A DNA stretch of 63,700 nucleotides, filler included, from Collodictyon triciliatum (lineage: Eukaryota), in the NCBI GenBank assembly GCA_043381765.1. It is 8 parts of 8 records of this genome, joined end to end, with 100 filler letters (N's around TTAATTAATTAA, not from the genome) between each part and the next. Parts side by side here need not be neighbours in the genome. Positions count along the whole stretch, not along the records: positions 36,908 to 50,710 come from JBHJMP010003980.1; 7 more parts are not named here. One strand, given 5' to 3'. Each line of letters opens with the position of its first letter. Position 1 is the stretch's first letter. Shown piece after piece: positions 204 to 62,200 of this stretch. Made by a program: the position numbers and the translations under genes. Below the pieces are notes generated by a model. The model saw only the letters and a program-made list of their open reading frames with translations, was not told where the DNA came from and searched no databases.

Positions 204-3200
204 GATCTTCCGGCAGAGTTCAGTACTACTACCGCATATTTGCTAACAATATGGCTATAGGCGCAATCGAGGGACTCAATTCTCGCAAGGTACTATATTT
301 GATGGAGTTTGCTATATAATATTATGGGTCATCACTTATCGGTAAGGGTAATAAAATGGGGTTCTCCCTCTAGATCACGAAGTTTGACATGTTCAGTGCC
401 AACTTGCAAATGTACGCTGGCCAAGGCTCGATCGACTTTCCGCTGGTAATTTCTATTCAAATGATCTGCTTTACATCATAGAGCGTACTTCCTATGGATT
501 TTTTTTTGCCGTTGTACGGATACAAAAATATAATAAAATACATTCGATATCGCCTCTTAATTATTGGCTAATCATACCTTCATCAGGTCCGCGGTATGGC
601 ATATGTTACTGCGATCTACAACAGACTTACACCACTTATCTACACACAACACGCCATTCTTTCTGTGAATGGTCTTGGAGTTGGCTCTGCTCCTTTCTAC
701 GGAAACAAGTATTGCGAATCCGCCTTAACACCAACTGCACAATGTCTAAAAATAGTCTCAGACCAGCATACATGCGTTTCTTTGTACAACCTAAAACCGA
801 ATCACATAACGTTCAATAGGTTCAAGGTTGTTCTTAATAATGGTCAAACCTGGTTGATATATTTTATCAATAACGATGGAAGCCTTCCAAACTTGCCCCT
901 CTACTTCCGCGTCGGAGAGGCGAATACACAACAGCTTCATGGTAGCTCCACCTTCACAGGAATAGTCAGGTCAGTTGCTCAAAAGAAAAAGAAGCAAGAT
1001 GAAATAATTAGGAGTTGCAGATTTTGACCACTGAGAAATAGCGGCGCGATTTTTATAAGTCCCATCACCGGGCTTGGGAACTGCATGTGCACATACGGCG
1101 CACTCATATTATTTTCTTTATCTTTCTCGCAGAATTTCCCAACTTCCAAGTGACTCAGTTGAGAGTATCCTTGATGCTCATCGCTCTACTTATGTCACTG
1201 GGGTCAATCTCGCCGCTTCCATGACTGGGTCATCGTCCGCCGCTTACAACTTTAACTGGATTGTAATGAAGCATCCATATTATCTAAACTCATTTCTGTA
1301 ACGATAAGTTGAAGTCTGACTTTATTATTTTAAGGCTCATCTACTGAAGACATTCATTTACAATTCTTTCATGACCACACAATGCAGGTGGCTGGCCCTG
1401 GTGTCAATTCTGGCGTTCGTCTGCTTCACTATACCTTCCCTCACCACCGCCAGATCATCTCCTCGTCTGCTTCAGCCACTGCCTTAACCCTTGTTAGCAC
1501 TACCAAGGTCTGTCTCATCGCTCCTATTTTAGTGGGGTAATATGAATATGATGTTTTGTTCACATTTGAGAACATATAATTTACAAACTATGTGATATTA
1601 GGGAGACATGGTTGCTTACATCGGAAACTCATGGACATTGAATGAGAACGGGTTCAGCTCTATTGAGTGGTTCCCACCACGAGGAGCTGACAATGACAAG
1701 GTTATATATCTTAAATGGTTTCTCATCAAGATTTACATGAATTCTAGACTTAACTATCCATAATAATACTTCTGGGACATGCAAAGCTGAATAATATCCT
1801 CATGCTCATGTTTCTCACATCATCTTTAATGTTGATGAATAGATTGCGAAGATCCGTAGCCAGCTTAATTCTGATATGAACTCAGACTTTGGACGTGATA
1901 CGAACGGTGGCTCAAATTACTTCAATGGAAAGTCTCTTCAAAAATATGCCCTCCTCTTGCTCGTTGCTGAATCTTTGGGAGAGACTGGCCTTCTCAATAC
2001 TGTAAATCGCGATAATATTTATTAATTTTACTGTTCGATACAGCATTAAGTAATTTTATGTCTTGGCGTAGGAAGAACAAGGATATAAACAATAAACCGC
2101 TGTAGGGACTCGCTAAACTCAAGACAGCATTCCAGCCAATTATCTCCCGCACAAACAATAACCCTCTCCGTTATGATGTTACCTACAAGGGAATCATCGG
2201 CCAACAAGGGCTGTATGGTGATGCCTTGGCTGACTTTGGCTCCACTTATTGTATGGGGTTTGACATAATGAGCCAATACTTGAGAATAAAGTATAAAAGA
2301 CAAAAAAAAAAAAAAAAGATACCGAATAACCTCCCCCATCTCAGAAATATATTATTTTATACAAAGGACAGTATATTTTAGTGTATATGATAAATTGATC
2401 CATTTGAAAATCTAGATAACGATCATCACTACCATTATGGTTATTTCATTTATACTGCTGCGGTCATCAGCAAATACGACTCTGCATGGAAGAATGCCAA
2501 CGCCGCGTAATTTAATAACTGATAAAGTCATTCTTCGAAATATGTAGAGTGGATACATTATTTTTAATAATCAATTCATTTTCGATTTTTTTTTTGTTGC
2601 AGTTGGGTCGATTCTCTTGTCCGTGATGTGGCCAATCCTTCCCTAGCTGACCCCCACTTTCCAGTATTCCGCGCTTTTGACTGGTTCAGTGGTCATTCAT
2701 GGTCTCAGGGACTCTTCGAGAGTGCCGACGGCAAAGACCAAGTGCGTATGCCATACTGTCGAGCTTACCCCTTAATCCATTTATCCTTCTACGTTTGATT
2801 TGCAACTTTTTCGAATTCTATTTCTGTATTGCACTTACGTGGCTGCTGCCTTGCTCACAGGAGAGCACCAGCGAGGAGATCAACTTCCTGTATGGATTGA
2901 AGCTTTGGGGTCTGGTTACCGGTCGCAACGACATGAAGGACCTTGGCGGTCTGATGCTTGCCAGTGAGTTGTAACTATATATTATTTTGCATCTAACTTC
3001 CAGTGTTTTTGTTGAGAATAACATCTTTTACATCTACACACACATATGTAAATTTTTTATTTGATCGGGATGCATCGTATGGCGGGACTAATTCCTGTTG
3101 TTTCGTACACCAACGCAGTGGCTCGTCGCTCCATCAACACATACTTCTTGATGGACGCCAACAATCGCAACCATCCCCGTGAATTCATAGGAAACAAGGT

Positions 3201-3911: not shown

Positions 3912-5646
3912 GTAGAGAATAAATCGCACGAATCCCACTGCGCAAGGCACTCACGTCTTAGGCCGTTGTGTTTTGTGTATCTGCATGCGACTTTGTGGGT
4001 TGTGTGACTTTGGTACCATCTTTTCCATAATTTATTTGTTGCTACAGCTGCCCATTGATAAAAGAAAAAAGAAAAGGGATATGTACGGGCATCAGGCGCC
4101 CTGTGATGCACTTGCCTTTTCTCACCCTCTCCTGGTGCTGGCGCTCATGCGCATCGTTCCACTCCGCTGTGGGACAACAAGGCGCCAGACAATAACACAG
4201 AACAAAGTCGCCACACTCAGCCGGGTTTGAGCCGCCTAAAAAAACAAAAAACAAGAAAGACAGAGATGTCAATATATGGTCGCCCATATGCGCATAGCAG
4301 AAATCGAGAGATTTATATGCCCTTGGGACACTGCAGCAGATTATTCTCCCTGGCAACCATGAGGTACGACGTTTACTCCTTGGGATCATTTCTATAGGAG
4401 ATTCATCTAGACACACGATCTAAGTTCGACACCGAACCAACACCAGGACGATGAGCCGAAGCCTGTGGTTCAGAGCATGAAGCTGTCTGTAGTCGAGCAC
4501 CCATGTGGAGCACGAGACAGACTTGATGACTGCGTAGCGATGCGAAGCATCAGCTGCACGAACCACCGGTGTTCTGACTGGTGCCCTTCAAATACAAGAA
4601 AACTAATCCCAAACATATCACTTCACTATGTTCACTCCCTAGCATCTCAGTTAGCCGCCATCGACACCTTTCTGTTGCATGCGAATTTCCACACCCATTC
4701 CCATACTTTTATCTATAACATTTCTCTGCATTCAAAGCACAGTCCCACAGCCAGCAATACGCCAGCATCTTGAGATATTCCTGTCACCATTCAATCAGCT
4801 CGCTACCATTCGTCACCTCTTCCTCCGATGGCCTCTCTGTCGCTCATTTCCACATAGACACAATGCACTCAGCGAAGCTTCGCGGTAACTCTGGAATATA
4901 AGTCCGCCTCCTTTGCCGCGATGTCCTTGTCAGCTTTTACTGCGCTCGTTTCCTGATGTATTTCGGATGTCGGATGCTGCTCAGACTGGAATCTGCTGTA
5001 TCTCAAGTATATCACGCTGTGGGTTATATGATAAAGATTCGTTATTACATGTATTATGTCGTATCAAACATGCTCCAATAGCTCTCATCAAACAACCTGG
5101 GTCAGAAAACATCGTGCAGGCTATATCGAAAGCTACATCGCCTTTTTCTATTAGAGTATAAATAAATGTATAAGGATTATGAGATGTGGTTACACGATAT
5201 CAGGATATCAGAATAAAAAAAAAACATTCGCTTCTCACAATACCATGCGCGTTCTTGTGGGACAATATCAATCAAATCTTTTTGCACTGGTGAATGTGAA
5301 TGTGAAAGCAGGAAGTATGATATCGCATTAATTGGAGTAAAAGAATTCAGATTCCAGCTGTGGATGGTTCGTAATCAGATCGGCTTTTCCTTTCATTTCA
5401 AATACTTGCGGGCGTAGGATGAATCATTTGCCAAATGAGCTCCCATTCGTTGATACATTACATCAAAACCCCAAAGTAAATATAAAAAAATGGCGCATAG
5501 AGGGGTGGGCGACGAAAGCAAAGAATCGTTCAGACATTTGCCCGATTTTTAATAAAAGCTGTTGCTCTCAACGACAGGTCTGAATTTTTTTTCTTTTAAA
5601 AGAATCCAAAGGGCCGAATATCTGATAGAGTGGCGAACCATATTTT

Positions 5647-7286: not shown

Positions 7287-7386
7287 NNNNNNNNNNNNNN
7301 NNNNNNNNNNNNNNNNNNNNNNNNNNNNNNTTAATTAATTAANNNNNNNNNNNNNNNNNNNNNNNNNNNNNNNNNNNNNNNNNNNN
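7287..7386. other. Artificial contig linker N44-TTAATTAATTAA-N44 (also 14673-14772, 22057-22156, 29437-29536, 36808-36907, 50711-50810, 58073-58172)
   Basis: The same 100-nt spacer with six-frame stop codons occurs seven times. Confidence 0.97.
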
Positions 7387-14672: not shown

Positions 14673-14913
14673 NNNNNNNNNNNNNNNNNNNNNNNNNNNN
14701 NNNNNNNNNNNNNNNNTTAATTAATTAANNNNNNNNNNNNNNNNNNNNNNNNNNNNNNNNNNNNNNNNNNNNTTTTTCTTTTTCTTTTTTTCTTTTTTTC
14801 TTTTTTTCTTTTTTTCTTTTTTTTCTTTTTTTCTTTTTTTCTTTTTTTCTTTTTTTCTTTTTTTCTTTTTTTCTTTTTCGTTAGAATCACCTTGTTGGAA
14901 GATCAACCAAAAA

Positions 14914-21715
<6,802 letters not shown>

Positions 21716-22542
21716 CAACTGGGCTGCGCAGCACACTCAAGGAAACGCCTTCTCAACAGAGTCAAGGAATAAAACCAAACTGAAGACAGCGTTGGCAGCC
21801 TCTTTATGAATCATCCCTTGTGTATACAAATCGTTTTGCCTCTGTTTGTTCTTTCGTCCTTTTGTTCTTTTGTTCTTTTGTTCTTTCGTTCTTTCGTTCT
21901 TTTGTTCTTTTGTTCTTTTGTTCTTTTGTTCTTTTGTTCTTTTGTTCTTTTGTTCTTTTGTTCTTTTGTTCTTTTGTTCTTTTGTTCTTTTGTTCTTTTG
22001 TTCTTTTGTTCTTTTGTTCTTTTGTTCTTTTGTTCTTTTGTTCTTTTGTTCTTTTGNNNNNNNNNNNNNNNNNNNNNNNNNNNNNNNNNNNNNNNNNNNN
22101 TTAATTAATTAANNNNNNNNNNNNNNNNNNNNNNNNNNNNNNNNNNNNNNNNNNNNTTCTTTTTCTTCTTTTTCTTCTTTTTCTTCTTTTTCTTCTTTTT
22201 CTTCTTTTTCTTCTTTTTCTTCTTTTTCTTCTTTTTCTTCTTTTTCTTCTTTTTCCTCTTTTCCTTCTTTTCCTTCGTTTCACGGGAACTATCCCCACAA
22301 CCTTTCTACTGCCATTTTGAATATCTTATTTCTGTTTGGACCAGACGGCCATGAATCGGTGGTTGGTGCTTCTCGCAGTCGCCTTTGCGCTTTGGACTGG
22401 GATGCTCACAATAAACGTCTCCGTTGATTGGTTTTTCTTCATTCGTCTTTTGCCATGTGTTTATGGTTGACACCTCATACCACTTCATTCAATCTCCACC
22501 ATTGCGTAAGATATCGCCAATGAAGGTTATTTATCTACATAT

Positions 22543-29241: not shown

Positions 29242-29663
29242 TGTTATGCATCGTATTTTATTGTAAGCCTTGCGTTATTGGCCAAAGAATCTATTAAGGT
29301 TCACAAGCAAATATCAACTCATCTGTCTCCTTTTTGTTTTGTTTTGTTTTGTTTTGTTTTGTTTTGTTTTGTTTTGTTTTGTTTTGTTTTGTTTTGTTTT
29401 GTTTTGTTTTGTTTTGTTTTGTTTTGTTTTGTTTTGNNNNNNNNNNNNNNNNNNNNNNNNNNNNNNNNNNNNNNNNNNNNTTAATTAATTAANNNNNNNN
29501 NNNNNNNNNNNNNNNNNNNNNNNNNNNNNNNNNNNNAAACAAAAAACAAAAAACAAAAAACAAAAAACAAAAAACAAAAAACAAAAAACAAAAAACAAAA
29601 AACAAAAAACAAAAAACAAAAAACAAAAAAAACAGGAGAGGAAAGCAGCCCCTCTTTTAAGTC

Positions 29664-31902: not shown

Positions 31903-34635
31903 CTACGAACAAGTACAGCAGTTCCTGATATGAAGCAGTTAAAAATGAATACCATTTTGACATCTCACATTATGGTGTGAATATATGCATAAAAATATGG
32001 AACCTAGCATGTCACAAAGATACAGTCACAGTTAGCAAACAAGCAAATAAAAACATAAAATAAATCGACAAATCGAAAACAAACAGTTAAATAAACAATC
32101 ATAAGCTAGTACCAAACTGATAGAAGAGCAAAAGGATAGCAAAAATACAATCGATGTACATACATCGGGGTGCCATAGCCTTCATCGGGGTCATATTTGT
32201 CTGACTCCTTGGCCGGGTACTCCGCCGAGCTGCCTTGAAGGAGCAGGGAAGAGCTATCATGGGATGAAATGTCGCTGTTTTGAGGCGCGATTGTGTGCTT
32301 GGGTGTCTGTGTGTGTTTGTCTTGAATGGGGCTTGACTCCGTTTCATTTAATTGGTGCTTTCTCGGAAATGGACCATTTCGATTTTCTGCAGAGACAGGG
32401 TATCAGTTATTATGACATAGTTTGTAAGGCTTATAAGATGAGAAAGATATGTTAAGAGTACAATATTTGGAATGGCATTTTACCTTCAACTGGATTAATT
32501 AAGGACTCAATATCTCTGTTTCTGGGCGGCTCAGGCTCAGGCTCAGGCTCAGGCTCGACTGGCAAATGTGTTTTAGTCTGAGATGTGGGTTCATAAGCAC
32601 TTTCATGTTCTCTTAAAAGTGTTTTTTGGACATAAATTGGAGCCGAAGAAGGAGGGAAAGCTGGAATAGTGTCTGGGGATGCAGTGATGAATTCCGATGG
32701 GCTGGTAATTCCTGATCGATAATCATCTGGACGAGGTTCTGTATTTTGTGGCCGATTGTTGGTGGGCGGGGCACCGACACTGTCCTCTGGTGTCAGATGA
32801 TAGCCTAACAAGCCATCGTATGTGGTTGATCTCGACCTTGCTTTGTGCATTTCTATGAAGGAAACTGGCTGCTTGGTGAATCTCATTGGTCCATGGTCGC
32901 CAGGTCTCATCAGCCCACCAGCGTTGGGAAGAGCTGGCTCTCTGTTATCAGCGTCAGCGCCCTCAAGAAGATCCTTTGGGGGATTCTAGTTTTGGAGGTT
33001 CAATACGAGAAAAAAAGGGAGAAAAGGGAGAAAAAGGAGAAAAAAAAGGAGAAAAAAGGAGAAAAAAGGAGAAAAAAAGGGAGAAAAAAAGGGAGAGAGA
33101 AAGGGAGAGAGAAAGGGAGAGAGAAAGGGAGAGAGAAAGGGAGAGAGAAAGGGAGAGAGAAAGGGAGAGAGAAAGGGAGAGAGAAAGGGAGAAAAAGGGG
33201 AGAGGAGGCAGAATGGAAAGAGATGAATATATTTACGTGTTGCAAAAAATGTAATTTCGCATAGTATATGCTGATTACAGTCACATTGGCTGTGCGCAGA
33301 TCGTAAAAAGGAAAATAAGGCGAACAGAAGAGGCGATAGTGAAAAAGAACGATTGCGAGATTTGCTTGTGTATAACAGCCCCATACCCGAGCCAGCTTCA
33401 GAATAGTCATGTTTTCATAGCACGCGTTTACGTTTTCGTCAAACTCCTCCTGGGGGCACTCCTCCATGACTAAATCCTATGAGAACGAACAATGAACGCA
33501 CCGATCAAACAGAACAAATACAGACACCGCAACACCTGAACCCAACCCATCCCAACCTCGCAGACATTGACCCACCAAACAGGCAATTAGAGCACCAAAC
33601 AAACAAACAAACAAACAAACAAACAAACAAACAAACAAACAAACAAACAAACAAACAAACAAACAAACAAACAAACAAACAAACAAAATAAAAATAGCAG
33701 TCGAAATAAATCATGAAATATACAAATATAGATATAGAACCCGACACCGACACCGACACCGACACCGACAAATGCCAGGCGACGAAAGGGGAGGCGCTTA
33801 CATCGTAGTAATCGCGGAGGAAGCGGAGCCAGCGGGCCAGGGTCCAGCGGGCTTCAGGGTCGTGGTGGAGGTTGGCGAGGAGGGCGTCCTTGAAGCGGAG
33901 GTCGGAGAGGTCGGCAAGGTGGAAGCGGCGGACATTGACCTTGCGGCGGACAAGGATCTGGTAGGAGATGAAGGCGAGGTTGTAGACGACGCTGCGCTCG
34001 CCGGCGTAGAAGGAGGTGCGCATGAGCTCGGGCGGGTAGAGCAGCATGCCCTTGGAGGCGCGGTTGAGGCGGTCCCACTGCATCTGGACGGAGGCGCGGA
34101 GGGCGTGGAGCTGGTAGTCGACGAGGACGATGGAGCGGCGGCGGGCGTCGTAGATGAGGTTGCGGCAGGAGAGCGGCTCCTCGCAGAAGGCCATGCCGCC
34201 GTCGGGCAGGCGCGGCAGGTGCGTCATCAGGTAGCGCGTGGCGTCGGCCATCTGCAGGGCGATGCGCACGTGCGTGGCCGTGTCCAGCCCCTGGTCCAGC
34301 ACGTCCAGCAGCGGCACGCCCTCTGCAAACGCCCGCACCACGTGCACCTGCTGGCGGTGGCAGAAGAACCCCAGGTACGGCGCAAGGTGCGGGTGCGGGT
34401 TCAGGTGCAGCAGTTTGCGGATGTCGCCCCGCACCCGCTCCACGTCCGCCGCCCCTTCGTACAGCATGTCCGCGCTGAACTGCTTCACCACCAGCTGTGG
34501 CAGCAGCCGCCTCCGCAGGCTCACCTCCAGAAACAGCTCGTACTCGCTGTGCGCAGCCTCGTAGGTCAGCGGCACGAGGCACTCGCGCCCGAAGCCCACT
34601 GTCTCGGTCCTGGCCGCCTCGCTTGGCTCCGTCAT
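31903..34635 (-). CDS. Protein-kinase-like pseudokinase with low-complexity C-terminus and Cys-rich tail
   Basis: Kinase-fold order VVKQF..HPHLAPYLGF..RIALQMADATRYL..LSCRNL..LVDYQ..YPPEL..VYNLAFISYQI. Downstream exons splice in frame to ..YGTPMNCCTCS*. Confidence 0.7.
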
Positions 34636-36783: not shown

Positions 36784-37063
36784 GTTTTGTTTTGTTTTGT
36801 TTTGTTTNNNNNNNNNNNNNNNNNNNNNNNNNNNNNNNNNNNNNNNNNNNNTTAATTAATTAANNNNNNNNNNNNNNNNNNNNNNNNNNNNNNNNNNNNN
36901 NNNNNNNATGTATGTATGTATGTATGTATGTATGTATGTATGTATGTATGTATGTATGTATGTATGTATGTATGTATGTATGTATGTATGTATGTATGTA
37001 TGCACATTTACAAAGCAAATTGACTTGTTTGATTACTAAGCACCATTCAATATTGCGCCATAG

Positions 37064-43996
<6,933 letters not shown>

Positions 43997-44466
43997 AGGC
44001 AAAGCCTTCAGCTCAGAGCCGCACAACAGAATAGGAATATTCTATTCTATACTATAAATTTGCCGGCTTTGTTTGTTTGTTTGTTCGATCTATTCTATAC
44101 CTCGCAATGTGTATTAATGAGATAATCACACACAGAGAGATAGACTTGAGAGGAGCAAAAAAAAAAAAAAAAAAAANNNNNNNNNNNNNNNNNNNNNNNN
44201 NNNNNNNNNNNNNNNNNNNNNNNNNNNNNNNNNNNNNNNNNNNNNNNNNNNNNNNNNNNNNNNNNNNNNNNNNNNNNNNNNNNNNNNNNNNNNNNNNNNN
44301 NNNNNNNNNNNNNNNNNNNNNNNNNNNNNNNNNNNNNNNNNNNNNNNNNNNNNNNNNNNNNNNNNNNNNNNNNNNNNNNNNNNNNNNNNNNNNNNNNNNN
44401 NNNNNNNNNNNNNNNNNNNNNNNNNNNNNNNNNNNNNNNNNNNNNNNNNNNNNNNNNNNNNNNNNA

Positions 44467-44561
<95 letters not shown>

Positions 44562-44938
44562 GACACACTCTTCAGAAAATAGTATTATTGCACTGGGCTC
44601 TTTTCTTCTCTCAACCCACCACATTCTGAATCTGAAGCCGGAAAAGAAAGTAAGCAGGTAATCGGAAAGAGGGATCCTGAGAAGGACAAGACCGCCTACC
44701 AGGAGACCAACGCCATGGAACGCCTACCATTCGCACGCAAATTGAGAGGCCGACGCAGCCGACCCAGAGGGCCAAAAGGTCACTTGACCACATCCCTTTC
44801 AACACAGGTTATGCGCAGAGACACCGACGATCAGGACGCCAGAGAACACCAACCCGTGAGTACAACAAGCGACGATAAGACGGAACGAGCATTCGAAAAG
44901 AATAATAAAGGAAAAAGATGGAGCGATTTCTTTGAAAC

Positions 44939-45017
<79 letters not shown>

Positions 45018-45879
45018 GGCGGATAGAATAAAGACAGATCAAGCTCTAGCCATTAACCCACGGACAGCAAGATAAGTATGAATATAGTGCTCAGTATTAG
45101 TTTCTCTGATTCATTTCTATACTTTCTTTATCTCTTTTTCATTTTTCTTTTTCTCTTTTTTCTTTCCATTTTCTCTTATGTCTCATTCAGCCTGTGACTA
45201 GATAAGCTTTATTACAAAGGTTGTGACGAACTTGTTTTTATCCCTTTCAAAGCACACCACTTTTTATACAACGAAAGTGTACCCATATATAGCAATTTAT
45301 TGCACAGACAACCATCGAATTAAATCTGGATTGAGAAAAGCAGGAGCTTTGGTGAATCCAAGGAAAGAACCTGAATAATGTAATAGTATAATTAGTATAT
45401 ATGATAAGGTATAAGAATACTTAATAATCTCATTCTATTCCTAAAATAAATTTATATTTATTTCTCATTTATGTAATATCATTGAAATTCAAAAATTACA
45501 AACAAGCCTTTGCCTTGGCCTAGACAGAACCCAGCCTACAAACCTGCCACCAAACATATATTTCAAAGTATACTTTCCACACTTGCGGCGGTAATCATAT
45601 TGCTTGGGGCCGATATGTTGACTTTCAGTCTCAATGGCAAAACAGCCGTCCTTTCGAACTCGCCGAATTGGCTCTCAGCGTTTTGTTTCAAATCACTTCT
45701 AAAAAATTTGGAGTGTCTGATTGCCACAATGTGCACATTTTGAGAGTCTCGGTAGATGCTTAGTTTTACATAATTGATTTTATGCAGTTTTTTTTTTTAA
45801 TTGACAGATTGACTCAAGTTTTATTAAAATTGAAAACTCGATAGTTTTCTAAAGGAAAAAGTAAAACAAAGGCTTTCAC

Positions 45880-47920
45880 ATGAAGAAAAGAAAACGTCTT
45901 GAGTCTGAGAATCCAAAGTCTGTAAACCCGGACAATAGAAATGTGAAAATATCTCTAAAGTCGATTGTAAAGAATCCGGATGATTATTACAAAATCAACG
46001 ATACGATTTCATTGTGTCATAACTTGGTTACGACACTTGTCTGTTTGCAAGATGTTACATATTGAAATCACAACACCTCCCAACAATCGATGAAATTTTT
46101 TTTGTGCGCTTTAAAGACAGTCGGAGTAGTTTCACAAGATAGACCCACAAGTTTTTTTAAAAAAAATACCAGATTTTTTTTATTTTTTATTATTCTTCCT
46201 TTCAACTTTTGTGCAGGACCGAGGGGGGGGGGGGGGGGGGGGGGTTGGCTTTGGTTCGCTAGCCATCGTTTACATGAACGCTACTTGTTGGCCGGGTGAA
46301 AAAAAAAATACCAGAGATGAATAAAGACATGACGACTTTTTATCTCTACGATTTCCGATTCCTTTTGTCCCGAGAAGAACGCTTTCGATTGATTGGACTG
46401 TCTCACGTATTACCGTACTTGGCGAAGCAAATGTTAACAGCTTATCATAATGACATTAAGGAGCATTTTGTAAAGAGGTTACTGCGCTTTATAAATCAAA
46501 CAGTTCCTAAAGATGGGAATATCACGGAAGCTATTAAAAAAGGCAGAGTTAGGAAAGTTAAAAGAAGTCATCTTCAAGAATCTCGGAATACCGGAGCAAT
46601 ATAAAGAATGGGCTAGAATGCATTTGAATCGTATCATTCCCAGCGATATTGTAAAAGGTATCGAATATGACGTCAAACTCAATCCAAATAAGTACATTCC
46701 ATGTCTGATTTACATGAATCGCATTTTTGAGGACATTGGAACCAAACTTTTCAACCAATCTCTATAAGAACTAACAGTATACCATGTCATATTAGTCTAG
46801 ATACTGCATGTTTGATATATCTATTAGTATCAAATGGAAAAACAGTATTAAAGAAGAATATATCAGGATGCGAAGATACCCCATGGTTTGACTTCTATGA
46901 AATCAAATAGAGGGTCTTTCATCAAAGAGACTACAATTTTATATACATGATACAAACAGACGGCTTGGCGGTGTCATTTTTGTTCGGAAAGAAAGGTATT
47001 TCAAATCCAAAATTCAAAATACCAAGAAAATCAAAAAAAAAAAACTAAGAATATGTTTATATATATATGAACTTTCCGAAGAGCAGTTATCTCTATTAGC
47101 GACAAAAAATATAGTTTGGGTGGACGCAGGTAAGTTTAATTTGGTTTACATGGTGAATGAGACAGGCAAGAAATTATGTTACACGGCACACCAATGAAGA
47201 TATGATAGCAAATCTCTTAAAAATCACAAAATACTCTTGCGCAAGAATAAAGAAAAGTACAATGATTCAGGGATATGCATGGCAACAGGTTCACAAAGTG
47301 CTGTTTCTTTTGGTCACAGGACTTTTGAAGAGAATCAGCAGTTTGAGACATCAAGAGTATCTTTAATCGATTTAGAGATAGAACTGAGTAAACATAATTC
47401 ATGTACCGTCGATTATGAAAAATTCGAAAATATATATCTATGAAATTAAGATACCAGATAGAATTATCCGGATTTTATGAACAAGTAACTTTTCGAAAGA
47501 TGAGACGGAGATAATATGTTAATACAAAAAGAAGTGAGCAGATGTTTATGGACCGATTCGAAAAGACATTTGGCAAGGATGTTGTACTTGCGTATGAAGA
47601 CTGGAGCAGAAAATGCCAGCTGAAGCATTTTATGGCAACAATCGAAAGCGGATTACGAAAAATACTATCCAAACGTTCTGAAACAGTTAATGTATAGATG
47701 AATTTAGAACCTCCAAGATGTGTTGCAATTGCGAAAAAGAACTGGAATATATAACACTGAAAAGAAATATGAAAAAAAGGTGTATAGTTGTCTCATATGT
47801 AAAGAATGCAATCGGTCAGAAAGCAAACTGCATTCTTGACAAGGGACTTTATCAGCGCTAATAATATACTCGACAAAGTTCTTTCAATCCTTCAAAATAT
47901 GCATACGACTCTCCTCAAAA
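45880..47920 (+). mobile_element. Degenerate Fanzor1 (TnpB-like RNA-guided endonuclease) pseudogene
   Basis: Intronless frameshifted peptide: KISLKSIVK, LPYLAKQMLTAYHNDIKEHFVKRL, YDVKLNPNKYIPCLIYMN, IPCHISLDT, IQTDGLAVS, RuvC-I IVWVDAGK (D 47123), AYEDWS, RuvC-II DEFRTSKMCCNC (E 47700), CLICKEC, RuvC-III TRDFISANNI (D 47845). Confidence 0.85.
46174..46300 (-). mobile_element. 5'-truncated retroposed insert with 15-bp target-site duplication
   Basis: AAAAAAAATACCAGA flanks both sides (46159-46173, 46301-46315). A/TAA-rich tail on the minus strand. Homologous copy at 51196-51294. Confidence 0.75.
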
Positions 47921-47925
47921 AACTC

Positions 47926-48045
47926 AGGCTGTTGGGTCTTTCCTGGCAGCCTTCACCACTACACAATCTTTGTGAAAAAAGTGGTGAGACCTTGAATACT
48001 AGCGCACCAGGTTTGCTAATTGAAAGATGGTATACCCCTTCCAGT
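47926..48045 (+). ncRNA. Putative Fanzor omegaRNA scaffold
   Basis: Adjacent hairpins directly 3' of RuvC-III: 47926-36/47942-52 (8 Watson-Crick + 3 G-U pairs) and 47953-60/47980-87 (perfect 8 bp) with inner 47962-66/47970-74. Boundaries are uncertain. Confidence 0.55.
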
Positions 48046-48527
48046 AAAACGACATGCCTGATAACAATATATTAAAGATAGTTCAATATCAAAAACTACG
48101 CTCACGGTGAGCTTGAGGCTGAACACAAAGTTCTGTTGCAGTCATTCAGAACCGCTGTCGACTGCAACACAATATCTCACCAACCGCAGTCTGGCACAAC
48201 TCTGTGCGCCGAATACTCTGGTGGGCGTGGTTGTCCCTGTTGCTTTGTCCACGTCTGGTGCCCTCCTTTATTCCCTGGCAATAGACATGTAACAGGCCAA
48301 GGCAATAAAAACCGTGAAGACCCTGGTGGCCGAACAAATGCAAAACAGGTACGAAAGGTGAGGGAAAACTTCCTCCTCCTTTTGTTGATGCGGGGGCGAC
48401 ATAGGTGGAAACGCTATTGTCTTGAACACAGAGAAGCAGACGAATGAGGGTCTGCAATGAGGAAAGACTCAGGGTGGTGATAGTCGGGCGGAGAATTCTG
48501 CGTGGGCCAGAAGAATGTTTATTGCAT

Positions 48528-49371
48528 TTAGTTCTGGTTCTTGACCTTCTTCTCGTTGGAAAGCTCGAAGTGCTTGCAGCGCTTCAGGGCCAGTTGCTGC
48601 TTGTACTTGCACTTGGTGCACTCCAGACGGAGCACGATCTTCTTGGTGGTCTTGGCCTGTTTGTCAAAGGGACGTTAGCTTCAGACCGTTTGTGCAGCTT
48701 GGGGTTTGGGTTCCGTGCGAGTGACACAAGCGGCGACAGGGAGACCTGTTTGGACGGTAGGTTGTGAGGAGTTTTTACGAACCTTCTTGTGGAAGATGGG
48801 CTTGGTCTGTCCTCCGAAACCACTCTGCTTTCGGTCGTAACGTCTCTTACCTATGAAGTGGGGTATATCATGGGTACGAGAACTAGAGAGAGAACTAGAG
48901 AGAGAGAGAGAACACAGGTTCATGAGTTTCGGAGGAGTGGAAACTAAGCTGTAACCTTGGGCGAAGAGGCTGGCCTTGCCGACCTTGTACTGCGACACTT
49001 TGTGAGGAGTGTGCTTACGGCATTGCTTGGACTTGCAAAAAGTGTTGCGGGTCTTTGGGATTTGGACCTGTTTGTGGTCAGTTTTTAGTAAAGTTTTTTT
49101 TTGTTAGTGATGAATCAGGGGCTGGATCAAGCCGGATCAAGCTGGATCGCAGGGATCAGAACTTTAGAGGTCGACAGCCTCAGACTAATAAGAATGGGAC
49201 AGTTTCGACAGACAACGCAAGAAGTTATATTCGTGTGTCTGGCAAGGAGCAATTATTTTCTGAACGACAGTGCGCTACGGGATTGGGGCTGTGGATACAT
49301 CTCATGGAGTGATTGGGTAATGAGCCAAAGAGGTATGAAAAATCATTGGGATTAGGGCAGGAACTTACCAT
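48528..49371 (-). CDS. RPL36A: 60S ribosomal protein eL42 (L36a/L44), 3 introns
   Basis: [78 protein letters not shown]. Confidence 0.96.
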
Positions 49372-49759
49372 GATGCTGGTTACTGGGTGGATAGCGGATT
49401 CCTATCGGCGCCACGGACACGATACTAGTAAAGAGCTGCGTGTTTTCACAATCGGCACTGGGAAGACTTTGTTTTTAACTGAGAAATTTTCCAGCTTTGG
49501 TTGGCACTGTTCGACAAGCGACTTTGCGCATACCCCAAGCAAGACTGCTTAATTGATGAATTACAAAATTAATATTATATTTCATATGTACAATTTGGAC
49601 ATAAACAGATTATCAAAAGCGAATGTATATTGATCATCATTCTTCGCATAATATATTCCAGAATTATCATGAAAGGAGAAACCGCTGATTATCCGTAATT
49701 TTATGGTAGTATTATTACGGTATTATTTGCCAACTTTTGCCCGCTAAGTTTCCTGTGCG

Positions 49760-50710
49760 ATGGCGGCGGACAAGGATAGCAGGGTAGGATTCACAGAGGC
49801 AGCCATTGGATAAGTGCGGGCCTTACCACTTCTGAAGGATTCTGTAGCCACTAGGGCTTATCAGTCGCAGCCAGTTCTTCTGGTTCCAACGCTAGTGCGG
49901 AAAACCCCTGAGTTGCACGTAAGTCTAGGAAGACCCGTGCAAGGAAGCCGCCTGCAAGTCTGTCTGAGCGGACAGTATTTTTGCACGGGATCGAGCATGT
50001 CGTTTACAACAAGAACAAGGCCCGCAGGCTCACAGATGCACTCACCTTCTTCTTGAAAGCGAATAAACTTTGCGAAGAGTCCATCCAATTGCGCTTACCA
50101 TACAGCGAAGGTCTTTACCTGATTGCCTTCCGCACTGCAGAAAACGCCCGAAAGCTTCTAAAGTTGAAGCAGGTAAGTTTGGGCGATATTACGATCAGCT
50201 TCAGTAGAAGTAAACCAACAGAGACCTTGGTGATGCTCTACCAACTACCGCTGGACGTGTGGCCGCAACTTATTCGTGAGGAGCTGAAGCCGTTCAGACC
50301 GACCCACGTAGATATCAAAAAGGACAAAGGCTTCTTCACAAACTCAATTGTGGTGAAGCTTCTTTGTCACAAGAACCAGCTCCCTGCAAAGTTTACGGTC
50401 ATGGGAAAAAAGTGTCCAAAGCGCATCCCCAAAGAGCGTCCGCCAGCCGCAAACAACGAACGACAAGTAAAAGCCCCGCAAAAGAATACAACCGCCAAGC
50501 AGACAAGCAGCAACGGGGCCAAGGAAACCAAGGCCAGGCAACAATAGAGCTCGCAAGACTCACAGCAGATACGCGCATACAACGACAGCGACGATGACAT
50601 GGAAGGAAATCTCGGTTCCTCTTCAGAATCCTCGCACTCGAGCCCTCCACCGCCAATACTGGACAAGCCCGCACATCGCAAGACCCAAGAGCAGCGCATC
50701 TCCAAACCCC
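49760..50710 (+). mobile_element. Degenerate non-LTR retrotransposon (L1/Tx1-like) ORF1, truncated by the contig end
   Basis: Intronless. Two RRM-like units (RTVFLHGI..YLIAFRTAENARKLL; VMLYQLPLDV..IREELKPF..LPAKFTVMG). In-frame stops at 49909 and 50545. No reverse transcriptase visible. Confidence 0.55.
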
Positions 50711-50810
50711 NNNNNNNNNNNNNNNNNNNNNNNNNNNNNNNNNNNNNNNNNNNNTTAATTAATTAANNNNNNNNNNNNNNNNNNNNNNNNNNNNNNNNNN
50801 NNNNNNNNNN

Positions 50811-51195: not shown

Positions 51196-51490
51196 TTTTT
51201 ATTATTATTGTACCTTCAATTTTGTTCAAGATGGCGGGGATGTTGGCTTTAGTTCGCTAGCCAACGTTTACATTTACGCTACTTGGTGGCCGGGCGGCAA
51301 AGTAGTCGGCAATCAGAATTGTATCCTGCATTTTGGCCTGTAGCCTGGGTCTTGTCATTACATAAGAGAGGCAAGGCGAGGTTGAATATCTTTCTCGGCT
51401 TCTTTCCATATGTCTCTTCTCACGGGGTCTGAGTAGGAGAGAACGTGCAGGTGGCGAAAGAAGCTGTTGAGGATAGATATTTTTATGGCG
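51196..51490 (-). mobile_element. Second, longer copy of the retroelement 3' end
   Basis: 51196-51294 aligns by eye with 46174-46297 and shares the tail-side boundary. The extension to about 51490 (ORF-end-like ..KDIQPRLASLM*) is inferred. Confidence 0.55.
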
Positions 51491-54019: not shown

Positions 54020-54091
54020 TGCCGTCTCTCGGAATCGAACCGAGGTTATCACGGCCACAACGTGAAGTACTAACCACTATACTAAGACGGC
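54020..54091 (-). tRNA. tRNA-His (GUG)
   Basis: GCCGTCT/AGACGGC acceptor stem, TAGTGGTTAG D-loop, anticodon loop TTGTGGC, GGTTCGATTCC T-arm and downstream T-runs. G-1 is not encoded, as usual in eukaryotes. Confidence 0.96.
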
Positions 54092-57265: not shown

Positions 57266-59265
57266 CTATTTATTTAAAATTCAAGAATTTGCGTTAGACT
57301 TTTTGTTAAAATTGTTTTCTGTATTGTATTTTTATTGGTTTTTTATTGGTTTTTTATTGGTTTTTTATTGGTTTTTTATTGGTTTNNNNNNNNNNNNNNN
57401 NNNNNNNNNNNNNNNNNNNNNNNNNNNNNNNNNNNNNNNNNNNNNNNNNNNNNNNNNNNNNNNNNNNNNNNNNNNNNNNNNNNNNNNNNNNNNNNNNNNN
57501 NNNNNNNNNNNNNNNNNNNNNNNNNNNNNNNNNNNNNNNNNNNNNNNNNNNNNNNNNNNNNNNNNNNNNNNNNNNNNNNNNNNNNNNNNNNNNNNNNNNN
57601 NNNNNNNNNNNNNNNNNNNNNNNNNNNNNNNNNNNNNNNNNNNNNNNNNNNNNNNNNNNNNNNNNNNNNNNNNNNNNNNNNNNNNNNNNNNNNNNNNNNN
57701 NNNNNNNNNNNNNNNNNNNNNNNNNNNNNNNNNNNNNNNNNNNNNNNNTTTTTTTTTCCATAAAGTCAATGAATGGCTCATGCTTCTCCAAACCAACATT
57801 CTTCAATCATACACCATATTTGATGACGATACGCTGAATTACATCAAGTAGACATTTTATCTTAATTGCTTTCTTGCTATCTTTATATGTTTACATAATG
57901 ATGGCAGGTAGCAATCAGGAAACCTGAGGCAAATGAATGCTTGATTTCCAAATAGATTCACTGTTATTTACCCATATATCCTGTCGATATGTCGCCTCAC
58001 TCGCCCAAAATTCAATCGTCTCCACTATTTCTCAACCGCCTTTTCTCTTCAATCTTCAGGCACAAACCATCTNNNNNNNNNNNNNNNNNNNNNNNNNNNN
58101 NNNNNNNNNNNNNNNNTTAATTAATTAANNNNNNNNNNNNNNNNNNNNNNNNNNNNNNNNNNNNNNNNNNNNCGAATTTAAATAAGTGGGGAGGGGAAAA
58201 AAAAGGAGGAGGAAAAAAAAAAAAAAAACGGTTTTTTTTTTTTTTTTTTTTTTTACTGCTATAACATGCATACCTAGACTTTCTTACCTACTACCTTACC
58301 TGCGATTGTAACCCGACCCCTACATAACACTACCACCGACAAAATATTTCATTTGTCATTAGTGCCAACAAAAAACAAAAACAAGAACTGCCTAATGAAT
58401 TGCCTAGTATACCCCCTTGATACCCATCATCTTTGGGATTGGCAGTATGAACGATCGATTTGCTCCACTTTACACTCGACATAATACCTTTTCTCTCTCT
58501 TTTTTTTTCTCTCTCTCTCTCTCTGTCCTTTTTTCTTCTTCCGATTAAATTCTATATTTCACTCTTTTAGCCTTCTTTTTCTTTGATATCATAGGCTTGT
58601 TCATGAATGTGCATCAAGCTCGGTTCTTTCTTTCTCCTATGAAGACTCTACCCCCAAATATTATGCCTCACATCTTCTCCTCACCCAGACTCCTAAACTT
58701 TCCAGAGTGCCCTGTTTCAAATGACGTGCGTACTACATCAACCTCCCCAAAAACCCTCGGCCGGTTTGAACGACGCTGTTTGACCGACTAATAAAGACCG
58801 ACCAACACGATTATTGTTCTGTTCGTTCTCGCAAACACCAACACAAGCACCAAAGCCCGTCTTTTCATCGTCACTCTAGCATCTCCCTTTTTGCAGGTAC
58901 CATCAGATAGCAACCCGTATACCATTAAAGCTTACACCATGCTCATATTCTGTCGCTTTTAAGATGACGATGAAAATGAAAAATACTATGATATGTGTGT
59001 GTGGGTATTAAAAAAAAATTAAAAAAAAATTAAAAAAAAATTAAAAATTAAAAAGAAAAGAAAAAAGAAAAGAAAAAAGAAAAGAAAAAAGAAAAGAAAA
59101 AAGAAAAGAAAAAAGAAAAGAAAAAAGAAAAGAAAAAAGAAAAGAAAAAAGAAAAGAAATTAAAACACAATGAATATATACATATACTTTTATGCAAAAG
59201 AAAGAAAAAGGATATTGAAGAGAGACTTCAAAAACCCAACGTCATTAACCTCACAGATCGCTTCC

Positions 59266-62200
59266 ATGGAGTTTGGCGAGTCACCTCAGCGCCCCCTGCG
59301 ACGCGTCCTTCTTCTCTCCGAAGAGCCGATCGAAGTTGACTCGCTGATACAAACACAAAACACAACCGATCTTCCCAATCCACTCGGAAACATAGGAACT
59401 CGTCCAACGCCGATCGACGAACTCGGCCGACCCACAATAAGCGCGGGCGCTTCTCAGTCTTCTCCACATATCCCGTTCCACAGCACACGCTACGCCTCCT
59501 TGGTCCAATCGGCCCAAAGCTTGGCACATTCGAACCAGACTGCCGAACCAGAACCAGCCACATACAAAGACTCGGTTCTTGGCTCAGCATACCTGAGAGA
59601 CTCTGACCAGGAGGCAGCACATATGTTATCAGTGAAACCAAAGACAGAGGGGCACTTTGAAAACGGCTTTGCTATGCAACCTGGCGATACATCGCGGACT
59701 GAGTTGGAGACTAATGTCGGGCAGTCTCGTTCATCTGGGCTTTATCCGATTCATGCATCAGACATAAGCGAGGTTGAGGAGGATGGAGAAGATTTTCCTG
59801 TCGTGAAAGTGCTACCGAACCAGGCATCCATTGCAACATCACAACCGTATGTTTGATATTCAATTAAATATACTAACTCTTAGAAAAATAAATAATTAAG
59901 GGGTCATTCGCCAGATTCGCATTAATTTTTGCCTTTTTTGCCTTTTTTTCTTTTGCCATTTTTCAGTGTCGAAAGACACATAATCTAATGTTACGTATTA
60001 GATGCATGCATTCCTTTGACAATATTCTAAACACGATATATATATGCATATAGTACATCAACAGGATCAAATTTATCGGATGTTCTACAACAGATTGCAG
60101 ATCGAAGGAAAAAGATTGAGCAAAGACTTAGCAGCTATCCACGACCTAGCGCACTGCATGGAAGGCACCCAAATATATCCGATACACTGACATCTTCAAT
60201 CGGGACGCCGTTATCAAGCGGGGTACAAACGGGTCCGAGTATTCGGTCACAAGGAACGTCATCTTTAGACCAGTACAGTCAGGATGTGAGCTCTGCACAG
60301 AGTTCAGTTGCACAAGCAGCCTTGCGTGTGAGGGCTCTACGGGAAGAAAGAGAAAAGATAGCCCATTCTGTAAATCGAATTCCTCCCAGAACAGAAGAGC
60401 TTTCCTCCATCAGACAAAGGCTCGATAGGTTTGGTTTGAATCATACCTTGATGATCATTTTGTTAGCATAATTATCAAGATGACCTAAAAAAACACACAG
60501 TTTAGATTGCGTACAACAAAAGTACAAAAACAATCGAAACTATAAAATGTTATAGTACTCCATATATTCCAATAAATCGTATCTATTTATATTATTTTTA
60601 CTTATCCTCCTCTCCCTCCTCTCCCTCCCCTCCCCTCCTCCTCTCTTACTCATTTTCTTTCTTCCTCTAATTTCAGAAAGGGGGGGTTCTTTCACAAACC
60701 GTGAGCATCAATCCAATTATGCTGGATTAGTTTTTAGTTTTTAATTTTATCTTTTTTTTTTTTTTCGAAAGCAACAAGAAGGTGATAACCGAGATTAGAA
60801 AAAATATGGCCATCGGGCGGAGTGATGATTCCGTCAAATTAAAATCAGAATCAGAATTATCCGAGTTTATTCCACCACATACCAACCACACTCGCTTTGT
60901 TCAAAACTACGAAAATAGTGGACCATCCAACAAGAAAAGTGATGGATCAATTATGGAATCTGATTCAGAGTCCAGTTCTAATACATCCGAATTTTATGTT
61001 CAAGTTTCAAAAACAAGTGCTACGCAAGAGAAAATTTTTGGAGTCATCAACAGCCCACCAGTTGACTTTACTGAAGGAGATTCAGCAAATTTTGATATAG
61101 CCTTCCCTTCTAAACGTATCTCATCATCCAGTCCCGAGCCAATATCAAAAATTAGCCCGCAATCTACTTTACACACACCACAGTCAAATTCAAATATTCT
61201 CGAAGAGGCATTAACAATTTCCTCTTCCCATACAATCCAGTCCCCTAATTTATTTGGGGTTACTTTAGTAAATCACTCTATGAAATCTCTTGCAAAAAAA
61301 CATTCTGGCGGAGCTCACAAACCTCCCCAATCATCTAGTGATGAAGACTCTGTGCTAAGCTCTCCCTCATCATTCTCGACAGTACATCCAACTGAAACAC
61401 CAAAGAGAATATTTGAAAATACCCCGTCAGAAGTTTCTGTAACTTCATTTTTCAACTTACATTCCACCGGGGACCGGAAAAGCATCATGAGTCGAGAGTT
61501 CCTCTCAGAAAACCCGCAGACCAAATTCTCTCCTGTAATTTCAAACCATGACCGCTCTATAGGGCCACGTCATGTACTAAAGATGACTTCGGATGTGCAT
61601 CATCGTCTATCGGCCGACTCATTTCCTTCACCCAATTCGGAACACGAAATAAAGACCGCTTCTATTCATGACTATGAACAACAAAGTGAATCAGAAACGG
61701 AGTTTGAAGTTAAACACGAGGAAAAAATTGTTAAGAAGAAACAAGGTGAACTAGAAAAGACAACACACCAAAGTCTTTTACCGGCTCCTCAGAGTAATGC
61801 AGCTGTATCCACCAAAAAAACCCTACCTAAAGTTGAAGAAAAATCAACTACTTTGGGAAGTCGTATCAAAAACGAAAAGACTCGATCATCAGATGCTCAA
61901 TTTTCGTCAAAATTGACCACTCTACGTGTTTGTACAAAAGGTGACAGATTCTCATCAGTATACATCGATATTCAAATATATTTATAATTGATACATTAAT
62001 TTAGATTCACTTTTGAAATCATGTTTGCTAAAACAAATTCATCTTCTTATCTAGATACAGTGCGTCAAAATTTATCCGGAATCATACAAGAAAGATCATT
62101 ATTTAGAAAAAGCTTTTATCATACACCATTTATAGATTATAAAAAATTTATGAATGTTGCGCTCCTTACAAAAGAAAAGAACAGTAATGTGCAAAAGGTA

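Follow-up and report, generated by a model that had tools for sequence, protein, structure and literature searches.

What two back-to-back hairpins at positions 47926-47987 are doing at the 3' end of a decayed Fanzor gene in the eukaryote Collodictyon triciliatum is the question raised by this locus. Fanzor guide RNAs originate on the 3' side of the element, directly next to its right end (PMC10530073). A sequence-only reading had taken the hairpins for a candidate omegaRNA scaffold, with the scaffold and the right end of the element lying at about 47.9-48.1 kb. Answering the question depends on what kind of gene lies upstream, whether the hairpins fold more stably than expected, where the element ends, and whether a comparable structure exists in intact relatives.

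The window, by which we mean the whole stretch of DNA that was analysed (63.7 kb), is composed of separate contigs of approximately 7.3 kb chained via N44-TTAATTAATTAA-N44 linkers, and adjacent pieces are therefore not neighbours in the genome. The Fanzor locus with its hairpins is found on the piece spanning 44466-50710, and the coordinates of the individual features are collected in Table 1. At the Rfam gathering score the entire window contains one U3 snoRNA and one tRNA and nothing else, and within 47700-48200 there were no Rfam matches at E<=1. The U3 snoRNA, together with reading frames that are short and broken, identifies the source as eukaryotic. Exceptionally stable 63-nt segments are also present elsewhere in the window, in a 70% GC stretch at 34150-34550 and on the minus strand at 59531-59598 (-30.3 kcal/mol, 52% GC).

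Table 1 Joins and features of the 63.7-kb window, with positions counted along the whole window
Feature	Position	Strand	Basis or description
Linkers/joins	7287-7386, 14673-14772, 22057-22156, 29437-29536		
Linkers/joins, continued	36808-36907, 44177-44465, 50711-50810, 58073-58172		
U3 snoRNA	4366-4582	+	Rfam, 73.9 bits
Inverted look-alike of 47960-47996	45246-45281		29/37 positions; ~600 nt 5' of ATG
Fanzor1 pseudogene	45880-47995	+	Stop-to-stop frames, sequence, tblastn
Inserted short repeat, 127 nt, SINE/MITE-like	46174-46300		Sequence; inside the Fanzor gene
Stem 1	47926-47952	+	RNAfold: 11-bp hairpin, three G-U pairs, loop UCUUU
Stem 2	47953-47987	+	RNAfold: two-tier hairpin; outer 8 bp, inner 5 bp
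Tail, stem 2 to inferred right end	47988-48035	+	Depth, inverted repeat end
tRNA	54020-54091	-	Rfam, 64.4 bits

The Fanzor gene that had been placed upstream of the stems on the plus strand is there, and both its motifs and its homology assign it to Fanzor1, but it is now a pseudogene. It starts at an ATG at 45880 (MKKRKR...) and retains the family motifs VWVDAGK (D codon 47123-47125), VWVDAGKFNLVYMV, LAYEDWS, IDEFRTSKMCCNC, CLICKEC and TRDFISANNIL (RD codons at 47842-47847), which are scattered across all three plus-strand frames. RuvC and zinc-ribbon motifs (GxDPGK-type, YGxWS, DEFxTSKxCxxC and RDxNSAxNI) are present and align to invariant columns of the relatives. The reading frame is not intact: there are at least six frame changes, an in-frame TGA at 47195-47197, a TAA at 47512-47514, and an inserted repeat. 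The insert is bordered by 15-nt direct repeats, AAAAAAAATACCAGA, at 46159-46173 and 46301-46315, which represent the target duplication, and an 87% alike copy of the repeat is found at 51233-51294 on the next contig.

Homology to known Fanzor proteins was established with a 180-residue query (P0001) translated from 46901-47440 with one TGA read as X, which recovered 67 proteins at E<=0.001 from a collection of 1.84 billion representatives. By tblastn, residues 103-573 of a full-length relative of 634 amino acids (P0010) align to 46317-47827 in alternating frames with an E-value of 2e-67. Among solved structures, P0010 matches SpuFz1 (8GKH; E 9e-37), PpFz1 and GtFz1. Pfam applied to single frames gave just a weak Cas12f1-like_TNB match (E 0.036), and three word-seeded protein searches, with a mid piece and with a C-terminal piece in two frames, found no relatives. 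No second copy of the Fanzor element was detected within the window by blastn or tblastx. The frame 47840-47995 translates as ...GCWVFPGSLHHYTIFVKKVVRP followed by a stop, in parallel with the viral relatives described below, whose proteins end ...RPxxF...SSFT...EKVRPS and a stop. Judged by this parallel, the ancestral stop was therefore probably the TGA at 47993-47995, which places both stems within the ORF tail, where they occupy the last codons of the pseudogene, approximately 20 codons of the tail.

All of the sequence motifs quoted in the sequence-only reading are present at the positions given for them. The arms of stem 1 are AGGCTGTTGGG (47926-47936) and CCTGGCAGCCT (47942-47952), and those of stem 2 are TCACCACT (47953-47960) and AGTGGTGA (47980-47987). 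Stem 2 has an outer tier, UCACCACU/AGUGGUGA, an inner tier, CACAA/UUGUG, and an A-rich internal loop on the 3' side. Comparison of the folding energy with shuffled controls had been suggested as a check, and for the 63-nt core (47926-47988, plus strand) the result is significant: the minimum free energy is -29.8 kcal/mol (z -5.36), and in none of 1000 dinucleotide shuffles was it equalled. Among 24618 segments of 63 nt taken over the whole window on both strands with a step of 5, the core ranks 17th (top 0.07%), nearly all of the segments that outrank it lie inside the 70% GC stretch at 34.1-34.5 kb, and equal stability is reached by 2 of 7078 GC-matched segments. The three G-U pairs are all in stem 1, and the minus strand of the core folds 7 kcal/mol less stably (-22.8 kcal/mol, z -3.6). 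The entire 120-nt interval 47926-48045 is mildly unusual (z -2.04 on the plus strand, -1.88 on the minus strand), and no structure above chance level was found in 47989-48045.

One structural proposal was not supported. Pairing of GGTCT (47935-47939) with AGACC (47987-47991) had been put forward as a pseudoknot or switch, but a loop-tail run of at least 5 bp arises in 696 of 2000 shuffles of the tail, and comparable pairings in the viral sequences do not exceed chance either. As a separate observation, 47880-47888 and 48021-48029 form a perfect 9-bp complement (TCTTTCAAT/ATTGAAAGA) that would enclose both stems in a 150-nt domain; a counterpart of this closing helix with like topology was not found in the viral folds.

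The position of the element's right end was approached through other copies of the element. Four public runs are listed with the locus (X1-X4), each in small shares, and they come from three studies (freshwater metagenomes and an organism coded A); a fifth run, X5, is associated with them through a shared study. Contigs from these runs, aligned at a likeness threshold of 80%, are numerous along 45200-48007, with 355 in X1, 252 in X2, 520 in X3 and 41 in X4, and because they are mostly 80-95% alike, the element belongs to a multi-copy repeat family. The depth of X3 is flat over the locus; X3 is RNA by guess, and none of the listed runs is recorded as RNA. At 47195, where the pseudogene has T, other copies have A and so lack the stop, and they have indels at 46748, 47696 and 47769, the frame-change points of the pseudogene. 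Some copies are without the insert at 46174-46300, their contigs skipping from 46151 to 46300 and from 46145 to 46326.

The cover contributed by these copies falls abruptly just beyond the stems. Summed depth in the bin 47904-48007 is 41.9, 15, 192 and 1.5 in X1 to X4, respectively, and in the bin 48008-48111 it is 8.2, 4.0, 4.7 and 0, i.e. 2-27% of the preceding bin in X1-X3; from 48112 onward there is zero cover in all four runs. The right boundary of the family, resolved to bins of 104 nt, is therefore downstream of the stems, roughly at 47996-48035, and similarity among the copies stops 10-50 nt 3' of the stems rather than upstream of 47926. Thus, the placement of the scaffold and right end at about 47.9-48.1 kb is borne out in regard to the boundary, but part of 47989-48045 is flanking DNA. 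The tail between stem 2 and the right end contains the likely stop codon and a weak hairpin at 48000-48018. The inverted repeat listed in Table 1 terminates at 47996, and AAGATGGTATAC (48023-48035) resembles by eye the viral end AAAAGGTGTAA, a resemblance that neither the covariance models nor a sequence profile backs.

The nearest intact relatives of the pseudogene are viral. Relatives of P0010 sit on giant-virus contigs of IMG/VR, five loci being found in the first scan, and a later scan kept 80 loci of 284 related stretches. When IMG/VR was ranked by the pseudogene's own piece, P0010-like loci were again the nearest among 361, with 48% identity over 92 residues. A metagenome scan yielded one truncated relative (L001, 40%), and scans of viral and prokaryote collections with the pseudogene or near-family proteins gave no match.

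When the 330 nt 3' of the RuvC-III motif were taken from 70 of the viral loci, the resulting 61 distinct sequences aligned as a single scaffold, consisting of hairpin B, hairpin C, UAUUGAUUUUACA, hairpin D and ...AAAGGUGUAA, after which the sequences diverge. The scaffold is approximately 125-190 nt long with a GGUGUAA terminus (loci from L002-L163; 284-361 related stretches). Across the 48 loci with both anchors, mean pairwise identity drops from 74% over the last 25 nt of the scaffold to 33% over the 25 nt that follow; the last six positions do not vary, and A makes up 96% of the seventh. A sharp conservation break at the right end is clear in the viral relatives; in the pseudogene's own family the drop in cover is resolved to 104-nt bins. 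The position of the ORF stop varies: in most loci it is directly after hairpin B, and in the P0010-like and L057-type loci it is about 20 codons later. Because the stop moves within the scaffold, conservation is at the nucleotide rather than the protein level.

Hairpin B of the viral scaffold has an outer GUCU/AGAC pairing, UUCAC, an inner stem of 6-7 bp with free sequence, and GAAAAAGUU. In an alignment of hairpin B from 37 of 38 listed sequences (L006 omitted), 95.5% of cells are paired and both-sided changes occur at 9 of 11 pairs, which was matched by none of 500 shuffles; when the partner strand was slid as a control, 40-50% were paired. The alignment of the whole scaffold has 46 rows, since 13 of the 61 sequences failed the anchor pattern and two, L030 and L035, were omitted for large insertions. 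These two loci have extra GC-rich palindromic insertions, in hairpin B of L030 (3760-3951) and in hairpin D of L035 (1694-1884). A covariance model of the entire viral scaffold (R1, 46 rows) recovers it where the ORF ends, in sense orientation, in 77 of 82 loci, 46 being training rows and 31 not. The five missed are L008, L050, L052, L064 and L081, and the contigs of L050 and L052 end before the ORF end.

In the four loci nearest to the pseudogene, L002, L003 (= L004, L005), L007 and L008, the minimum free energy fold has a 12-bp hairpin A over the codons for RPxVFxRTEG and hairpin B immediately 3' of it, an arrangement that stems 1 and 2 of the pseudogene share. The sense strand is the more stable by 3.8-5.5 kcal/mol in these four, and with the pseudogene core it is favoured in all five.

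Whether the pseudogene's stems correspond to viral hairpins A and B was assessed with three covariance models of different scope. R1 gave no match at the candidate site at E<=10, either with default filters or with filters off, and hairpin C, hairpin D and the GGUGUAA terminus were not detectable with it in the 3' region of the pseudogene. A model of hairpin B (R2, 37 rows) scored 9.4 bits at 47951-47984 (E 4.3, rank 15 of 21), which is not significant. A third model (R3) was built from hairpins A, B and C of L002, L003, L007 and L008 only. Its top match in the 63.7 kb, both strands included, is 47922-48006 on the plus strand at 21.9 bits, with an E-value of 4.7e-4 that is rough because the model has four sequences and its structure was hand-drawn from the viral folds after the fold of the pseudogene was known; the second match scored 11.3 bits. 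As a control, in a further 89 kb of viral loci without hairpin A the best non-cognate score was 16.0 bits (L024, 715-793), and the cognate hairpin B sites in those loci scored 7-10 bits. An nhmmer --max profile of the same four-row alignment found nothing at the site at E<=100, so that it is the pattern of pairing that yields the R3 score.

In the R3 alignment, which is biased toward structure by construction since it is fitted by the model, 20 of the 21 pairs of hairpins A and B are kept in the pseudogene. Stem 1 preserves 11 of the 12 pairs of hairpin A with nearly all of the bases differing from the viral rows, and stem 2 preserves all five outer and all four inner pairs of hairpin B. The second outer pair of hairpin B is C-G in the pseudogene and G-C in all four viral loci. 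As modelled by R3, stems 1 and 2 would be the structural counterparts of viral hairpins A and B. Of the proposal of an omegaRNA scaffold, the Fanzor1 identity of the upstream gene, the place of the stems in its last codons, the boundary downstream of them and this match to covarying viral hairpins are supported; the pseudoknot is at chance level, and the gene in this copy is dead.

The reading that we favour, and regard as reasonably probable, is that the hairpins make up a structured module at the 5' side of the omegaRNA region in a Fanzor1 element related to SpuFz1, a region that overlaps the ORF tail and extends to a right end at 47996-48035, in a dead copy of the element. The hairpins lie on the nuclease sense strand, at the 3' end of the ORF and beside the right end, with the cover of other copies ending within 48008-48111. 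Because under R3 they match the scaffold at the same place in the nearest intact viral relatives, they are what would be expected in a mobile element of this known type. The locus would then be a probable relic of an omegaRNA scaffold. The RNA would be read from the sense strand, overlap the last ~20 codons of the nuclease and run to the right end. A functional copy would be expected to extend its transcript by 15-20 nt of flanking DNA, which would serve as the guide and start just past the right end. We predict that the hairpins are transcribed, that Fanzor binds them and that they belong to the mature guide RNA. Any such RNA made by the dead copy would depend on the protein of another copy in order to act, or else it is a relic.

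This reading can be set beside the guide RNAs already described. The omegaRNA of SpuFz1, the Fanzor1 of Spizellomyces punctatus, has a 75-nt two-stem scaffold that spans the 3' inverted repeat, and that of GtFz1 overlaps 17 codons (PMC10432273; Saito et al. 2023). Like the structure proposed here, the SpuFz1 RNA goes with a protein of the same family and is a two-stem, sense-strand RNA starting at the ORF end; its stems have a linker and lie wholly after the stop, whereas the stems of the pseudogene abut and overlap the last codons. By eye, the stems have no sequence likeness to the omegaRNA sequences compared from the supplement of PMC10432273. The giant-virus scaffold (L002-L083) is like the pseudogene in having hairpin A and a two-tier hairpin B within the tail of the ORF, and strand and geometry agree as well. 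It is unlike it in that the pseudogene has no detectable hairpin C, hairpin D or GGUGUAA, and the proteins are 40-48% identical; moreover, the giant-virus loci are viral, whereas the pseudogene's element is a multi-copy repeat in a eukaryote genome. In the TnpB omegaRNA, or reRNA, of IS200/IS605 and IS607 elements the scaffold likewise reaches back into the nuclease ORF at its 3' end; it stops at the transposon's right end, and the flank supplies the guide, but the host is prokaryotic and the fold is different. The pseudoknot of the TnpB reRNA, in which 5 nt beside the guide pair with the loop of stem-loop 1 (PMC10711439), is without an above-chance counterpart here.

Three other explanations of the hairpins were weighed. 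The best placed, which we nevertheless think unlikely, is that they are a conserved structure at the 3' end of the Fanzor mRNA, lying outside the mature guide RNA and serving as a processing signal or as a regulator of translation or stability. Covariation and G-U pairs indicate an RNA but do not say which RNA. A related giant-virus Fanzor1 omegaRNA is listed as 112 nt including the guide in PMC10432273, and the viral hairpins are too far from the end for an RNA of that size, the scaffold end lying approximately 150 nt downstream of hairpin A and 125-160 nt downstream of hairpin B; hairpins A and B may thus be upstream of the mature RNA. It is because that listed viral RNA is just 112 nt that we retain an explanation restricted to the mRNA or a precursor. 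Against it, the scaffold itself overlaps the ORF end in TnpB and GtFz1 (PMC10432273), and at this locus stem 1 is separated from the inferred end by 70-110 nt, within the known sizes of Fanzor1 scaffolds.

Less likely again, and to our minds improbable, is that the hairpins act as DNA-level signals of the transposon end, i.e. a subterminal hairpin or inverted repeat recognized by a transposase, or a Helitron-like end, and have no RNA role. Such a role would agree with the inverted look-alike of 47960-47996 at 45246-45281, for which the local alignment score of 32 compares with a maximum of 28 in 200 shuffles. It would agree also with the viral locus L047, where the last ~57 nt of the scaffold form a terminal inverted repeat: they are repeated in inverted orientation 2.1 kb upstream of the ORF start at 2501 (304-371 on the minus strand and 4359-4415 on the plus strand; the L019 counterpart is 516-583, minus strand), which indicates terminal inverted repeats of a 4.1-kb element that includes upstream genes. 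The viral inverted repeat, however, spans hairpin D and the terminus and not hairpins A and B, and the G-U pairs make the structures strand-specific.

The look-alike is internal to the family. The 232-nt segment that contains it, 45076-45307, is missing in three X3 contigs, and the look-alike, absent as it is from some copies, does not mark the family's outer left end. Cover of other copies extends left beyond 45200, and for this reason 45246 and 47996 were rejected as the ends of true terminal inverted repeats. The segment may be a nested end fragment, or ghost, of the same family; it also carries small hairpins of its own besides the look-alike.

A Helitron 3' end has a hairpin approximately 10-12 nt before a terminal CTRR, with insertion before T, and Helitrons have no inverted repeats. 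CTAG is present at 47999-48002, 11 nt past stem 2, but the base after it is C and not T, and there is no Rep/helicase gene on the contig; with an inverted look-alike existing in addition, a Helitron 3' end was rejected. Because the Spu-1 inverted repeat overlaps its omegaRNA, a role of the hairpins in DNA would in any case not exclude a role in RNA.

That the stems arose by chance as coding sequence decayed, as could be argued from the state of the pseudogene and from the failure of R1 and R2 to detect the site, is very improbable given that none of the 1000 shuffles was as stable (z -5.36) and that R3 has its top match at the expected place and on the expected strand.

At the locus itself the result, with the hairpins read as the 5' module of an omegaRNA, is an ordinary one, namely the expected RNA region in a dead copy of a transposon. 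It is a case in which a structure from one decayed copy could be tied to the conserved scaffold of distant intact relatives. The guide RNAs of Fanzor nucleases need to be found locus by locus before the nucleases can be tested or used, and the comparison has marked out a large giant-virus Fanzor1 clade in which the scaffold and right end are well defined and usable at the bench. A broader proposal, which we advance tentatively and give somewhat less than an even chance, is that the double hairpin, set within the last ~20 codons, is a conserved 5' guide-RNA module of one Fanzor1 clade, common to giant-virus elements and a high-copy transposon family of a freshwater eukaryote, and that hairpins C and D were lost in the host family, which works with a shorter scaffold of approximately 70-110 nt. 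If this is true, then nuclease and RNA would have passed jointly between virus and host, and the tail of the gene would be under a dual constraint, as protein and as RNA.
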